Shown: in pieces, positions 31,975 through 38,507 of the stretch
How positions within the stretch are numbered: position 1 is the first letter of the stretch
How the letters are laid out: each line of letters starts with the position of its first letter
Assembly: GCA_046723735.1 (NCBI GenBank)
Contig: JBKOVB010000032.1
Span: 11,854-75,853 of the forward strand
Length of the DNA: 64,000 nucleotides
Source of the DNA: Actinomycetota bacterium
Lineage (GTDB): Bacteria > Actinomycetota > Actinomycetes > Mycobacteriales > SCTD01
Direction of reading: 5' to 3'
Notes under the pieces: generated by a model
What the model was told of the DNA's origin: nothing
The model's input: the letters and a program-made list of their open reading frames with translations, nothing else
The model's database searches: none
Translations under genes and position numbers: made by a program

Positions 31975-32346
31975 TCAGCTGACGCCGAGCAGGTCGACCA
32001 CGAAGACGAGCGTTTCCCCGGGCTTGATCACGCCGCCCGCACCGCGTGCGCCGTAGCCCAGGTGCGGCGGGATGGTGAGGCGGCGCCGGCCACCGACCTT
32101 CATGCCCGCGACGCCCTGGTCCCAGCCCTGGATGACCATGCCGGCGCCGAGCGCGAACGTGAAGGGCTCCCCGCGGTCCCAGCTGGCGTCGAACTGCTTG
32201 CCGGTGGACCACGCGTGCCCGACGTACTGCATGGTGCAGCGGGTGCCGGGGACGGCCTCCTTGCCCTCCCCCACCGTGAGGTCCTCGACCAGGAGGTCGG
32301 CGGGTGGCGGGCCGTCGGGGATCGTGATCTCAGGCTTGCTGGTCAT
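31975..32346 (-). CDS. FKBP-type peptidyl-prolyl isomerase (cytoplasmic)
   Basis: FDASW, VIQGWD, GGRRRL.IPP..GYG and LVFVVDL motifs. Confidence 0.95.
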   Translation of the reverse strand: MTSKPEITIPDGPPPADLLVEDLTVGEGKEAVPGTRCTMQYVGHAWSTGKQFDASWDRGEPFTFALGAGMVIQGWDQGVAGMKVGGRRRLTIPPHLGYGARGAGGVIKPGETLVFVVDLLGVS

Positions 32347-34057: not shown

Positions 34058-34576
34058 TCAGCCCACCTTCACGAGGTCGACCACGAAGATCAGGGTCGCG
34101 TTGGGCGGGATCGGACCCGTGCCGCTCTCGCCGTAGCCGTCCTTCGCGGGGATGACGATCATTCGGCGGCCGCCCTCGCGCATGCCTTCGACGCCCTTGC
34201 TGAAGCCGGGGATCACGTTGCCCCCGATCTGGAACTTCAGCGTGTCCGTGGCCCCGCGGCTCCAGCTCGAGTCGAACTCGGTGCCGTTGGAGTGCAGCAC
34301 TCCGACGTACTTCACCTCGACGTCGTCGCCGCTCTTGGCCTCCTTGCCGGTGCCGCAGACGATGTCGTAGGTCGTCGTCTCGGTCGGTGCGGGGGGCCGT
34401 GGCGACGGGACCACCGGCTTCGTGGCCAGGTCCTTCGTGCCGGTGCCTGTCGGGGTGCAGGTGGCGCCCGGGGCGGTCGGCGACGGCGACGACCCGGCCT
34501 TGTTGCCCGTGCCGCCCCCGCACCCGGCGAGAAGCAGGACGAGAGGTACGGCGAGAAGCAGGCCGCGAGCCCTCAC
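34058..34576 (-). CDS. FKBP-type peptidyl-prolyl isomerase lipoprotein
   Basis: Lipobox LAGC; FDSSW, VIPGF and GYG motifs. Confidence 0.92.
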
Positions 34577-35274
34577 GTGCTGCCGCCCAGGATCGTGGTG
34601 AGGCGGTCGGTGGTGAGGCGCCGGAACGCGCGGCGGGGGCGGGTGCGGTCGAGGACGGCCGCCTCGAGGGCGGACGGCTCGATGGCGCGGGACTCCCCGC
34701 CCTCGGCCGGCGCGCCGAGGGCCTTGACCGCCAGGCGGAGCGCGTCCTCGAGGCCCGCCGAGCCGTCGTGCTCGTCGTTGAGCACCACGGCGATCGGGTC
34801 GGCGTTGCCGCCCATGACGACGAACGCGTGCTCCTCCGCCACCGAGCCGTCGTAGGTGAGGCGGTAGAGCTGGTCGTCACCCACGCCGTCGCCGACCTCG
34901 GCGACGGTGAGCTCGACCTCGTAGGGCTTGCCCGACTCGGTGAAGATCGTGCCGAGCGTCTGCGCGTAGGCGTTCGCGAGGCCGCGACTGGTGACGTCGG
35001 AGCGGTCGTACTGGTAGCCCCGCAGGTCGGCGTAGCGGACACCGGCCAGGCGGAGGTTCTCGAACTCGTTGTACTTGCCCACCGCGGCGAAGGCGATGCG
35101 GTCGTAGATCTCCGAGATCTTGTGCAGCGCCTTGGAGGGGTTCTCGCCGCAGAACAGGATCCCGTCGGCGTAGGTCATGACGAGCACGGAGCGACCGCGG
35201 GCGATGCCCTTGCGGGCGTAGTCGCTCTTGTCCCGCATGATCTGCTCGGGACTGACGTAGAACGGCGTGCTCAC
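34573..35274 (-). CDS. prcA: 20S proteasome alpha subunit
   Basis: [22 protein letters not shown] and KISEIYDRI motifs; GTG start at 35274. Confidence 0.97.
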
Positions 35275-35279
35275 GGTGC

Positions 35280-36101
35280 TCAGCCTCCGGGGTTGGTCAT
35301 GCGGGCGTCGACGACGCGCTGGACGACGGTGGCCATCTCGTCCTCGGAGAGCCGGTGCAGCCCGTCGGACGACACGGTCATCACCACGGGCCAGATCTTG
35401 CGGGTGAGGTCGGGGCCGCCCGTGGCGGAGTCGTCGTCCGCGGCGTCGTAGAGCGCGTCGACGACCAGCTCGACCGCCTCGTCCTGGGTGACGTCGTCCC
35501 GATAGCGCTTCTTCAGCGCGCCCCTGGCGAAGACCGAGCCGGAGCCGACCGCGTGGAAGCCGTGCTCCTCGTAGCGCCCGCCGGTCACGTCGTAGCTGAA
35601 GATGCGGCCCTTGCCGTCGTCGGGGTCCCAGCCGGCGAACATCGGTACGACGGCGAGGCCCTGCATCGCCAGACCGAGGTTGTTGCGGATCATGGTGGCG
35701 AGCCGGTTCGCCTTGCCCTCCAGGGACAGCGTGCTGCCCTCGAGCTTCTCGTAGTGCTCGAGCTCGACCTGGAACAACCGGACGATCTCGATCGCGATGC
35801 CGGCGGTGCCGGCGATGCCCACGCAGGACAGGTCGTCGGCCGGGAACACCTTCTCGATATCGCGCTGGGCGATGATGTTGCCCATCGTGGCGCGACGGTC
35901 GCCGGCCATCACCACCCCGCCGCTGTGCACCACCGCCACGATCGTCGTGCCGTGCGGGGCCTGCACGAGGCCGTCCGGCAGGGCGCGGCGCGACGGCAGC
36001 AGGTCCGGGGCCGCGAGGCTCAGGAAGTCGGTGAAGCTGCTGCTCCCCGGCGCGGTGAAATGAGCTGGTAGACGCCCGGTGAGACCAAGGTCCTCTGCCA
36101 C
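35280..36101 (-). CDS. prcB: 20S proteasome beta subunit (with propeptide)
   Basis: GSSSFTDFL propeptide, PHG|TT processing site, AGDRRAT and VGSGS; GAGAGGA RBS then GTG 36101, both inside the upstream endonuclease gene. Confidence 0.97.
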
Positions 36102-36640
36102 GTCGTCCTCTCGAGGTAGTCGATCGCCTTGCGGAAGATCGCGACGTCGTCCTTGAGCTGGCCCAGTGCGACGTTGCAGGTGAAGCAAAGCACTCCACGG
36201 ATCTTGCCACTCAGGTGGTCGTGATCGACGTGGTCGGCAGAGTTGCGCTCGCAGATGGCGCAGACGCCGCCTTGCCCAGACACCAGGTCCTGAAGGTCGG
36301 ATGCTGTAAGGCCGTAGGTGCGCCGGAGATAGCGGTCGGCCTCTTTTGTCTTGCGGCACTGCTTGCAATAGGTGTTGTAGCCGCCTGCCTGGGCCTTTTG
36401 CCTGTGAAACTCATCAATCGACTTGGTCTCGCGGCAGCACGAGCAACGCTTCAAGCCGTCAGGGCTGCGATCCTTCTCTCTCACGCTCAGCCCCAGTCGC
36501 TCCCGCTTTGCCTTGTAGTAGCTGCGATTCCTCATGCGATTGCAGGGCAAGCAGCAGCGCGACAGACCGTCAGGCAGCCCCTTGTTCCTACCGAAGGCCG
36601 AAGTAGGAAGTTCGGTCGAACAACCCGGGCATTTCTTCAA
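36020..36640 (-). CDS. Endonuclease VII-family (His-Me finger) nuclease with two N-terminal Cys4 zinc-finger-like repeats; putative free-standing homing endonuclease
   Basis: YGLT...QGGVCAIC...[22 protein letters not shown]; repeats KKCPGC..F...DG...CLPC and KRCSCC..F...GG...CKQC; lower GC; GGAG before TTG 36640 (alternative start 36652). Confidence 0.88.
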
Positions 36641-36678
36641 TATGTTCTCCAAAAGGAAAAGAAATGCGCCCGGAAAAG

Positions 36679-36885
36679 CTACTGCCCCCCCTTTTGCACG
36701 TATGAACGCACAAACTCCTCCGCGTTCGTCTCTAATACGTCGTCAATTTCGTCGAGCAGGTCGTCGACCTCGTCGGTCAGCTTCTCGACGCGGTCGTGGA
36801 CGTCGGTCTCGGTCTCCTCGACCTCGGCGACGTCCTCGCTCGTCCTGCCGACGCGCTCCTGGCCGCCGTTGTCCTTGCCTGCCAT
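36679..36885 (-). CDS. pup: Prokaryotic ubiquitin-like protein Pup (C-terminal GGQ)
   Basis: [37 protein letters not shown]. Confidence 0.98.
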
Positions 36886-36974
36886 CACCGTCTCCTCGAG
36901 AGTCGACCTCAGAGACGAACCTATCCCGTGGGTCCGTCACTCACCCATCGGCGCCAGCAACTGCTGTTGAACGG

Positions 36975-38507
36975 TTACCGACGCCCAGCGAGCCCCTCGA
37001 GCAGGTCGAGGGCGGTCTCGCTGCGGTCGAACAGGCCGCCCACGTGCGCCTTGGTCCCTCGCAGCGGCTCGAGCGTGGGCACGCGCTGGAGCGACTCGCG
37101 CCCCACGTCGAAGATGACGGAGTCCCAGGAGGCTGCAGCGACCTGGCCGGGGAACTGCCGCAGGCACCTGCCCCGGAAGTAGGCCCGGGTGTCCTCGGGC
37201 GGGTTGGTGACGGCGGCCTGGACCTCCTCCTCCGTGACCAGCGTCTGCATCGAGCCCCGGGCGACCAGCCGGTTGTAGAGGCCCTTGTCCCGTCGTACGT
37301 CTGCGTACTGCAGGTCGACGAGGTGCAGCTTCGGCGCGTCCCAGTCGAGCCCCTCGCGCTGCCGATAGCCCTCGAGGATCGAGAGCTTGGCGACCCAGTC
37401 CAGCTCCTGCGACAGCGACATCGGGTCGGCGGCGAGGCGGTCCAGAGTGGACTCCCAACGACGCAGGACATCGGCCGTGTCGGCGTCCACGTCGGGGCCG
37501 AGCCGGTCCTCGACGTGCTTGCGCGCCTGCTCGCAGTACTCCATCTGCAGCTGCAGGCCCGTCATCTTCCGCCCGTCGCGCAGCGTGACGAGGTGCTTGA
37601 GCGACGGGTCGTGCGAGATGGCCCGCAGCGCCCCGACGGGGTTCTCGAGCCCCAGCTCGATGCCGTTCTGCCGCAGCCAGCCGTCCTCGACCATGGCCAG
37701 CACGAGCGCGGTCGTGCCGACCTTGAGGTAGGTCGAGATCTCGCTCAGGTTGGCGTCACCGATGATGACGTGCAGCCGGCGGTACTTCTCCGGGTCGGCA
37801 TGCGGCTCGTCGCGGGTGTTGATGATGGGCCGCTTGAGCGTGGTCTCGAGTCCGACCTCGACCTCGAAGTAGTCGGCGCGCTGGCTGATCTGGAAGCCGT
37901 GCTCGCGCCCGTCCTGCCCGAGCCCGACCCGGCCGGCGCCGACGACCACCTGCCGCGAGACGAAGAAGGGCGTGAGGTGCCGGACGATCTCGGCGAACGG
38001 CGTCTGCCGCGCCATGAGGTAGTTCTCGTGGGCGCCGTACGACGCCCCCTTGTTGTCGGTGTTGTTCTTGTACAGCTGGATCGGCGCGGTGCCAGGCAGC
38101 TGCAGCGCCCGCTGCGCGGCGGTCTCCATGACCCGCTCCCCCGCCTTGTCCCAGATGACGAGGTCGCGGGGGTTGGTCACCTCGGGGGTGGAGTACTCGG
38201 GGTGCGCGTGGTCGACGTACAGCCGCGCGCCGTTGGTGAGGATGACGTTCGCCAGGCCGAGGTCGTCCTCCGGCTCGCCGGGCAGGTGGTCGGACAGCCC
38301 GACGCCCACCTCGAAGCCGCGCGCGTCGCGGAGCGGGTTCTCCTCCTCGAAGTCCCAGCGCGTACGGCGGTCCCGCGGGCCCTCGGCCAGCACACCGGCG
38401 TAGCCGTTGACGACCTGGCTCGACGCCACCATGTGGTTGACGCCGGCGTGACCGGGCGTGGAGACGCCGTACTCCGTCTCGGAGCCCATGACGCGGCGAA
38501 CGCTCAT
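36975..38507 (-). CDS. dop: Pup deamidase/depupylase
   Basis: [29 protein letters not shown] and AASWDS motifs. Confidence 0.97.

Follow-up and report, generated by a model that had tools for sequence, protein, structure and literature searches.

Block exchange at the pup–prcB junction of actinomycetes links the 3′ end of pup to a candidate homing-type nuclease gene

The Pup-proteasome locus described here lies in a stretch of 64,000 nucleotides from an Actinomycetota bacterium (Mycobacteriales; NCBI GenBank assembly GCA_046723735.1, contig JBKOVB010000032.1, positions 11,854 to 75,853), which is called the window throughout and whose positions are counted from its first letter. Between pup and the proteasome beta-subunit gene prcB, an open reading frame (ORF) at 36020–36652 on the minus strand reads as an intact Endonuclease VII-motif (His-Me) nuclease gene. 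Comparison with related loci revealed that the front half of this gene, the spacer ahead of it and the last 12–17 codons of pup are swapped between lineages as one block. A sequence-only reading of the window, made from its letters alone, had proposed a free-standing homing system targeting pup. We lean, with moderate confidence, towards a reading of this kind, in which the nuclease is a homing-type selfish cassette and the recoded pup end, being part of the exchanged unit, is its co-converted flank.

What has already been published on the pup–prcB nuclease is its position only. Jablonska et al. (2017, NAR 45:11479; PMC5714182) assigned Endonuclease_7 genes beside pup and prcB to His-Me finger group 13; these genes belong to the same family and stand in the same place, downstream of pup/dop and upstream of prcB. 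In its treatment of this group the article suggests a role in the Pup-proteasome system from the neighbourhood, and it does not there discuss decay, block exchange, tree discordance or a recoded pup end. In our literature search, neither homing nor block exchange nor pup recoding was described for this nuclease; Iyer et al. (2008) mention no endonuclease, and a 2021 review of the Pup-proteasome locus never mentions the nuclease. The link between the nuclease and the 3′ codons of pup, a graded series of the pup-end codon shift in Streptomycetaceae and a switch in the last residue of Pup are new here.

Exchange of the pup end with the nuclease front half

Close relatives were taken as the best 80 of 245 relatives in one-genome-per-species contigs, and comprise 64 Micromonospora loci, other Micromonosporaceae, 2 Streptomyces and 7 ‘Frankiales’/Actinomycetota metagenome-assembled genomes. 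Distribution was followed across the window's order in 301 evenly sampled genomes (the order sample). Loci, genomes and families carry our own L, G and f handles; genome tallies include the unpublished G030, G146, G220 and G306, and one tally for the window's genus includes G023, while counts of loci exclude them.

Across the 64 intact Micromonospora loci (L054–L130), the last 17 residues of Pup are invariant save for the final Q or E, and the synonymous difference per codon is 0.48 over these 17 codons, against 0.13 over the preceding 28. The nuclease gene is similarly divergent, with a synonymous divergence (dS) of 0.75 and a nonsynonymous divergence (dN) of 0.18, compared with 0.32 and 0.03 for dop and prcB. 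Its two halves differ: dS reaches 1.27 in the zinc-ribbon half and 0.27 in the catalytic half, with dN/dS close to 0.2 in both. Sliding windows over six close Micromonospora pairs gave 0–5% mismatch in the flanks and 30–70% in the block, which has sharp bounds and extends from 15–45 nt inside the end of pup to the onset of the catalytic domain near +400/+450. Counted codon by codon in 34 close pairs whose front halves are unlike, the difference is 0.44–0.82 at pup codons −1 to −12, with the K codon at −4 (0.18) as the exception, and no more than 0.09 upstream of codon −18, apart from 0.18 at −26 and 0.15 at −43.

At an equal proportion of synonymous differences (pS) in the flanks, near 0.05, the pS of the nuclease N-terminal half ranges from 0.00 to 0.65 between pairs, which indicates discrete replacement and not merely fast change. 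One pair (L073/L099) is even more alike in the front half (pS 0.06) than in the flanks (pS 0.21). Tree comparison points the same way: the flank data reject the block tree (log-likelihood difference 3506; approximately unbiased test, p-AU 4e-7), the block data reject the flank tree (difference 3754; p-AU 0.008), and the Robinson-Foulds distance between both trees is 110 out of a maximum of 122 by our own calculation. Synonymous differences in the pup end are fewer between loci with the same N-terminal allele (0.27) than between loci with different ones (0.49), and the same holds when pairs are matched for flank divergence (0.29 vs. 0.47).

Streptomycetaceae have an equivalent block, 5–20 times more divergent than its flanks; in their alignment the differences begin at about pup codon −11 and end exactly before the catalytic motif. 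Four genomes of this family are a case of direct recombination. Their flanks pair L291 with L296 (0.009) and L305 with L310 (0.026), whereas the segment made up of the last 11 pup codons, the spacer and the first 25 nuclease codons pairs L296 with L310 (0.050) and L291 with L305 (0.124), all other pairings lying at 0.21–0.23. For the window itself, comparison with its own-genus relative L028 gave 0.44–0.62 in the block and 0.12–0.27 in the flanks; other pairs in the genus are too diverged and partly misaligned upstream.

These results qualify two expectations of the sequence-only reading. Co-conversion of the 3′ end of pup is supported to the extent that this end is physically part of the exchanged block, but the pup end is hypervariable and does not exist as one recoded allele. 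A nuclease tree unlike the species tree was found for the variable half, which departs from the flank tree, but not for the deep tree of the whole protein, which follows the host families.

Exchange also reaches the last residue of Pup. Among the 64 Micromonospora loci, final Q or E agrees in 27 of 27 pairs with the same nuclease front-half allele, in 895 of 1840 pairs with different alleles and in 10 of 34 close relatives with different alleles. Pup ending in Q needs deamidation by Dop, and the GGE form is ligation-ready, so an exchange of the block would toggle Pup between GGQ and GGE. Because Q or E follows the block allele, the species difference between GGQ and GGE, noted for a long time, may in part be a by-product of cassette exchange and not of selection on pupylation. 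In the window, codon 69 of pup (36682–36684) completes GGQ and is followed by TAG. The pup stop codon, too, co-segregates with the nuclease front-half allele in Micromonospora.

In the window, the recoding of the pup end appears as a shift in codon choice. The count given from the letters alone, which omitted the GTG and so spoke of the first 45 codons, is confirmed: codons ending in A or T number 1 (GCA) of the first 46 and 8 of the last 23 (GAA ATT GTA TTA TTT CGT TCA CAA, 36682–36750; Fisher exact p = 4.1e-4). At the 4% of A/T-ending codons (A/T3) found in the neighbouring genes, at least 8 of 23 has a binomial chance of 1.9e-6. G+C is 0.49 over 36600–36749 and 0.715 over the whole window, and the nuclease gene has the lower GC that had been claimed for it (0.60, and 0.76 at third codon positions, GC3, against a GC3 of 0.94–0.97 in dop, prcB, prcA, pafA and arc).

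The shift goes with the nuclease across the order. Out of 149 order-sample loci (L040, from an unpublished genome, was dropped beforehand), three had no pup match, and the remaining 146 were classed by the nuclease-like residues upstream of prcB as full-length (at least 170 residues), decayed (18–169) or none (fewer than 18). A/T-ending codons make up 35.7% of the last 17 pup codons and 7.4% of the rest of pup in loci with a full-length nuclease (n = 40), 33.7% and 9.4% in loci with a decayed one (n = 26), and 14.9% and 11.7% in loci with none (n = 80). Within Micromonosporaceae the corresponding values for the last 17 codons are 38%, 38.5% and 12% (n = 3 for the last), and each of the 3 nuclease-bearing families has a higher mean than any of the 12 nuclease-free ones (chance 1/455). 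An independent replicate with 80 loci of Streptomycetaceae gave a graded series of 40.9% for full-length copies (n = 23), 21.3% for 18–169 residues (n = 29), 21.8% for trace remnants of 1–17 residues (n = 20) and 2.2% where no trace is left (n = 8). One or no A/T3 codon among the last 17 occurs in 0 of 40, 80 and 23 full-length loci, compared with 34 of the 80 nuclease-free ones. The sequence-only reading had allowed that the shift might be equally common in nuclease-free loci, which is not what was found (15% vs. 36%, and in Streptomycetaceae 2% vs. 41%). Family f5 (n = 14), in which prcB begins 8 nt after pup, has an unshifted pup end (A/T3 11%) despite the close downstream gene, so coupling to that gene is not itself the cause of the shift.

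The nuclease, its distribution and its decay

The 210-residue product of the ORF matches Pfam PF02945 (Endonuclease_7) over residues 109–181 (E 1.1e-22; 80.2 bits against a cut-off of 23.6) and carries two N-terminal CxxC...CxxC repeats related to one another (BLASTP E 2e-4), in agreement with the His-Me endonuclease with two zinc-finger-like repeats that had been described from the letters alone. The ribbon ligands are Cys 8, 11, 34, 37 and Cys 70, 73, 96, 99; the catalytic domain adds Cys 131, 134, 156 and 159, and all twelve Cys ligands are kept. Residues D143, H144, H146, R152 and N160 are present as well and invariant in 30 sequences, while D143, H144, N160 and the four catalytic-domain Cys are invariant in both homologue alignments and align to Hpy99I and T4 endonuclease VII. 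The catalytic Asp, His and Asn correspond to those whose roles are given for Hpy99I (PMC2699513). The zinc-ribbon half is predicted to be the DNA-recognition part.

Among proteins of known structure, a profile of six homologues matched the sequence-specific restriction enzyme Hpy99I best (E 1.5e-14; residues 62–178, which take in the second ribbon and the catalytic repeat), with T4 endonuclease VII in second place (E 1.3e-10), of which only residues 9–87 of 157 aligned. An AlphaFold model built from 30 sequences (predicted local distance difference test, pLDDT, 87.1) gave the same two proteins as top PDB matches in Foldseek, with E 1.9e-5 for Hpy99I, which ranked first, and a root-mean-square deviation of 2.2 Å over 87 columns for T4 endonuclease VII. 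Phages encode free-standing genes of the same layout at 29–37% identity, with 89 records that span 80% or more of the query, and phrog_2633 matches with E 5e-42.

According to the account of the family in Fang et al. (2018, Mob DNA 9:27; PMC6083498), proteins with the Endonuclease VII motif form two clades: in the resolvase clade the motif is N-terminal, whereas in the endonuclease clade, to which the homing enzyme F-CphI and Hpy99I belong, it is C-terminal. The window nuclease has its motif in the C-terminal half and therefore the order of the endonuclease clade. F-CphI of cyanophage S-PM2, a member of the DHHRN family of homing endonucleases, is likewise free-standing and has its motif behind a separate N-terminal region; the DHHRN residues of the window nuclease (D143, H144, H146, R152, N160) were mapped through the alignment to T4 endonuclease VII rather than to F-CphI itself. 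As described there, F-CphI belongs to a phage, has the psbA intron-insertion site as its target and was shown to cleave in vitro, whereas the window nuclease sits on a bacterial chromosome, bears two zinc ribbons in its N-terminal half and is known from sequence.

Hpy99I from Helicobacter pylori, a Type II restriction enzyme (PDB 3FC3/3GOX; PMC2699513), has in common with the window nuclease a Cys4 zinc repeat ahead of a Cys4 beta-beta-alpha-Me repeat that holds the catalytic Asp-His...Asn. Identity is only about 27%. The N-terminal beta-barrel of Hpy99I (residues 1–73) is unmatched, as the alignment begins at Hpy99I residue 74; the place of the barrel is taken by the extra zinc ribbon of query residues 1–60, which is related to residues 61–121. 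T4 endonuclease VII (gp49; PDB 1EN7), a Holliday-junction resolvase, is alike in catalytic core and zinc site, but it carries the motif N-terminally, ahead of a dimerisation domain (residues ~90–157) that has no counterpart in the window nuclease, which accordingly lacks the resolvase-type layout.

The order pup, nuclease, prcB is found in 80 of the 80 best relatives, 71 of them with the same 82-nt overlap between the nuclease ORF and the start of prcB, a feature absent from the sequence-only reading. Taken together, the same position between pup and prcB recurs in over 180 loci belonging to five or more families. Occupancy is nevertheless patchy, as had been expected from the letters alone: PrcB is found in 299 of the 301 order-sample genomes and the nuclease in 102, which is not the co-occurrence expected of a core component of the Pup-proteasome system. 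By family, the nuclease is present in 16/23 genomes of f1 (the window's family), 33/38 of f17, 36/38 of f18 and 6/39 of f2. Family f15 has weak to moderate matches in 6/38 genomes (E 9e-8 to 3e-20), and 0 of the 3 f15 loci fetched have the nuclease at pup–prcB; other families have 0–2 matches each. In Streptomycetaceae, PrcB occurs in 199 and the nuclease in 105 of 201 genomes, these 105 matches being about 57 full-length copies, about 30 C-terminal fragments and otherwise paralogues elsewhere.

Many copies are decayed. Micromonospora (g19) has matches in 31 of 31 genomes, 13 of them truncated or split, and its decayed loci show a pup–prcB gap of 177–498 nt instead of 591–628 nt, or broken frames. 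Half of the species in the window's genus keep only C-terminal remnants of 18–52 residues upstream of prcB, and of the 10 full-length copies 4 have a broken frame or lack a Cys ligand; interrupted frames were also seen in 3 of the 23 full-length copies fetched from Streptomycetaceae. Within the window's genus, identity to the window protein is 74–82% for PrcB and only 37–58% for the nuclease. The GC3 of the nuclease gene is atypical everywhere (0.60–0.89, against 0.89–1.0 for prcB). A recent foreign insertion was considered and rejected, since the gene is old and widespread. Shorter nuclease paralogues, covering model positions ~53–180 and lacking the tail that overlaps prcB, are found elsewhere in many Streptomyces genomes (G361, G442, G493, G505, G484, G444, G511 and others) and may be prophage copies.

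The only other inserts seen at the site are unrelated small ORFs of high GC in the nuclease-free loci L134 (f1) and L200 (f2), one signal-peptide-like (~167 residues) and one membrane-like (~268 residues). With 0 and 4 of 17 codons ending in A or T, the pup ends of these two loci are unshifted or weakly shifted.

Homing weighed against other readings

Homing endonucleases are mainly known from introns, inteins and phage genomes. In intronless homing, free-standing endonucleases of phage T4 (the Seg and Mob genes) co-convert flanking markers. As with these genes, the nuclease lies between two conserved genes, is patchy among relatives and has a flank that is co-inherited over tens of bases. Seg and Mob enzymes are of the GIY-YIG or HNH type, belong to phage genomes and have demonstrated cleavage; the nuclease, by contrast, resides in a cellular operon, where exchange needs DNA transfer from cell to cell, and the variable unit in the actinomycete loci includes the DNA-binding half of the enzyme itself. 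The signature of a homing gene, namely a fixed site, patchy presence, decay of copies and discordance between gene and host trees, is found here, yet together with deep clustering by host family. Membership in a phage-type family of free-standing nucleases, a composition that is atypical everywhere and a recombining cassette are further evidence toward a homing-type gene. Frequent loss, moreover, makes the persistence of the gene hard to explain without re-invasion or benefit.

Under the homing reading, the enzyme is predicted to cut sequence-specifically at the pup|prcB junction, or close to it, in alleles with no nuclease or with another block type. A nuclease-bearing copy, arriving by conjugation or another form of DNA transfer, would then serve as the repair template, and repair would copy the nuclease gene along with some 40–50 nt of pup. 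The zinc-ribbon half is predicted to set the specificity of cutting, and recoding of the pup end to protect the enzyme's own locus from cleavage. A bolder version, which we put forward tentatively and think rather unlikely in full, is that of a chromosomal homing endonuclease long resident at pup|prcB in several families, which survives by an arms race in cis: the zinc-ribbon half and the synonymous sites of the Pup C-terminus (the would-be target) would form one linked cassette of specificity and immunity, new types would invade loci that resist old ones, and each invasion could switch GGQ and GGE. If the gene is indeed a free-standing homing endonuclease, its setting within a core cellular operon of Streptomyces, Micromonospora and relatives would be uncommon for such a gene, and the sole published suggestion, that the nuclease belongs to the Pup-proteasome system, would be corrected. 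The block structure is in addition a natural experiment in the joint diversification of DNA-binding specificity and a linked target region, and provides a natural set of zinc-ribbon/His-Me nucleases that may recognise different long sites.

Several observations weigh against homing with protective recoding. In the 34 close Micromonospora pairs the excess divergence on the catalytic side fades over nuclease alignment columns 116–150; because it thus also decays some 100 nt (about 35 codons) into the catalytic domain, linkage to the hypervariable nuclease half suffices for the recoding. Immunity by recoding is therefore not required by the data, and the variation of the pup end needs no selection of its own. 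In one allele type, the K codon AAA and the G codon GGG among the last pup codons form a AAAGGGGG string 8–10 nt before the ATG of the nuclease, which means that a ribosome-binding signal may account for part of the shift. The whole-protein nuclease tree clusters by host family, with Micromonosporaceae as one clade (support 99) and 5 label changes, the minimum possible. Exchange therefore appears to take place mostly between related hosts and to be superimposed on a long vertical residence of the nuclease, whose fixed position does not by itself prove site-specific invasion. The purifying selection on intact copies (dN/dS ~0.2) would fit a host benefit too, and block divergence in close Streptomycetaceae pairs is graded (0.08–0.26 at flanks of 0.01–0.08), which could come from local hypermutation. 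The comparison of pup ends by nuclease class, finally, uses thresholds of our own choice and related genomes that are not independent, and the order sample and the best 80 loci overlap partly in species.

A host-serving nuclease is the first alternative, and one to which we give a low probability. The gene would have been inherited vertically within the operon for a long time, with a function linked to the Pup-proteasome or to the response to DNA damage, as suggested by Jablonska et al. (2017) in the part of PMC5714182 that notes its position, and the A/T-rich pup end and spacer would hold expression signals such as a Shine-Dalgarno sequence, unstructured mRNA or perhaps a promoter. The family-wise clustering of the nuclease tree and the purifying selection noted above suit such a role, as do the conserved 82-nt overlap, which places the prcB ribosome site within the nuclease gene, the AAAGGGGG string just upstream of the ATG and the presence of the DNA-damage regulator genes pafBC in the same locus. 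A host function is harder to reconcile with the absence of the nuclease from 199 of 301 genomes of the order when PrcB is kept in 299, with 13 dead copies among 31 in Micromonospora, and with the review of 2021, in which the nuclease goes without mention; it also leaves the hyperdivergent, tree-discordant front half unexplained. Expression signals account poorly for the pup end as well: the f5 loci show that translational coupling is not the cause, codons −6 to −17 are too far upstream for a ribosome site, and a consensus scan of 35900–37100 found neither a sigma-70-like promoter nor a terminator. The consensus of a RecA-independent DNA-damage promoter motif was found neither near the locus (up to 2 mismatches) nor window-wide (up to 1).

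Comparably improbable in our judgement is a restriction-like or competition nuclease related to Hpy99I, on which diversifying selection would act to yield new DNA specificities (against phages or DNA entering the cell, for instance), with the variation of the pup end hitch-hiking on alleles under balancing selection. The closest solved protein is indeed a Type II restriction enzyme, and the sole PADLOC match, a weak one, is REase_II (E 1.2e-9). An old and functional gene (dN/dS 0.2) whose highly diverged DNA-binding-half alleles are shuffled among species agrees with this alternative, and so do its patchiness, frequent loss and low GC3 and the roughly symmetrical decay of diversity on either side of the variable half. 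Neither a methyltransferase nor another partner gene adjoins the nuclease, however, its neighbours being dop, pup, prcB, prcA and FKBP genes, so that the cognate methyltransferase of a restriction-modification system like that of Hpy99I is missing beside it. Defence islands are normally variable in content; a site that stays constant in over 180 loci of five or more families and holds no other defence cargo therefore counts against a restriction-like role.

Very unlikely, lastly, is a weakly constrained relic without any exchange, whose front half and pup end would mutate faster locally (for example by repeated nicking of the gene's own neighbourhood and error-prone repair) while the universal GC-to-AT bias gives the A/T3 shift: the graded Streptomycetaceae pairs, the equal dN/dS of both halves at a 4–5-fold difference in dS and the noticeable pup-end difference (0.27) even between same-allele pairs agree with it, but the N-half divergence is not clock-like (pS 0.00–0.65 at equal flank distance), alleles are common to different lineages in the discordant four-genome case, the L073/L099 block is more alike than its flanks, and the right-hand boundary in the Streptomycetaceae alignment falls sharply and exactly at the catalytic motif.

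The locus in the window

All genes of the locus discussed here are on the minus strand. The gene arc/mpa (38562 to ~40370) is followed by dop (36975–38507), which encodes the Pup deamidase/depupylase of the Pup_ligase family, and by pup (36679–36888; Pfam PF05639, E 4e-25), the gene of Pup-GGQ. The start of pup may be GTG at 36888 or ATG at 36885, and its stop is the TAG at 36679–36681; the last 12–17 of the 23 sense codons at 36682–36750 are those that fall into the hypervariable block of relatives. A pyrimidine-rich spacer of 26 nt (36653–36678; G+C ~0.49) separates the pup stop from the first possible nuclease start. Within the nuclease ORF, the N-terminal half with both zinc ribbons (residues 1 to ~125), hypervariable in relatives, occupies 36278–36652 and the catalytic beta-beta-alpha-Me domain (residues 109–181) occupies 36110–36328. 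The genome of the window has one copy of the nuclease.

The 3′ tail of the nuclease and the 5′ end of prcB overlap by 82 nt (36020–36101). Gene prcB (35280–36101) starts with GTG at 36101, and its Shine-Dalgarno sequence GAGAGGA (36106–36112) lies inside the nuclease codons for L-E-R-T. The first 27 prcB codons are thus encoded within the nuclease ORF in another frame, and the short nuclease remnants of nuclease-free relatives are exactly this upstream region of prcB. The alpha-subunit gene prcA (34573–35286, start approximate) comes next, and 3′ of it stand an FKBP gene, pafA, a second FKBP gene, pafB and pafC. The two FKBP-type peptidyl-prolyl isomerase genes among prcA, pafA and pafB (31975–32346 and 34058–34576) match Pfam FKBP_C with E 1e-32 and 1e-26.

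About half of the sampled words of the window occur in one soil metagenome, and no RNA run is listed among those that contain them. Contigs of 4 sequencing runs are short pieces with one unreliable joint, and in the main run none lies over 36305–36640.

The nuclease-free f1 spacers of L131, L133 and L134 have a common CTCTGTAGGGT motif upstream of prcB, which may be the −10 region of a prcBA promoter. For the window nuclease, TTG at 36652 and TTG at 36640, the latter with GGAG ahead of it, are possible starts. Two start types are found in the 64 Micromonospora loci: in type A the ATG lies ~33 nt past the pup stop, behind a conserved GGCATA...AATCGGAC string, and in type B the gene opens with ATGTCCGATTTG (MSDL) 5–8 nt past the pup stop, an arrangement also found in Streptomycetaceae and in L045 of the window's genus.

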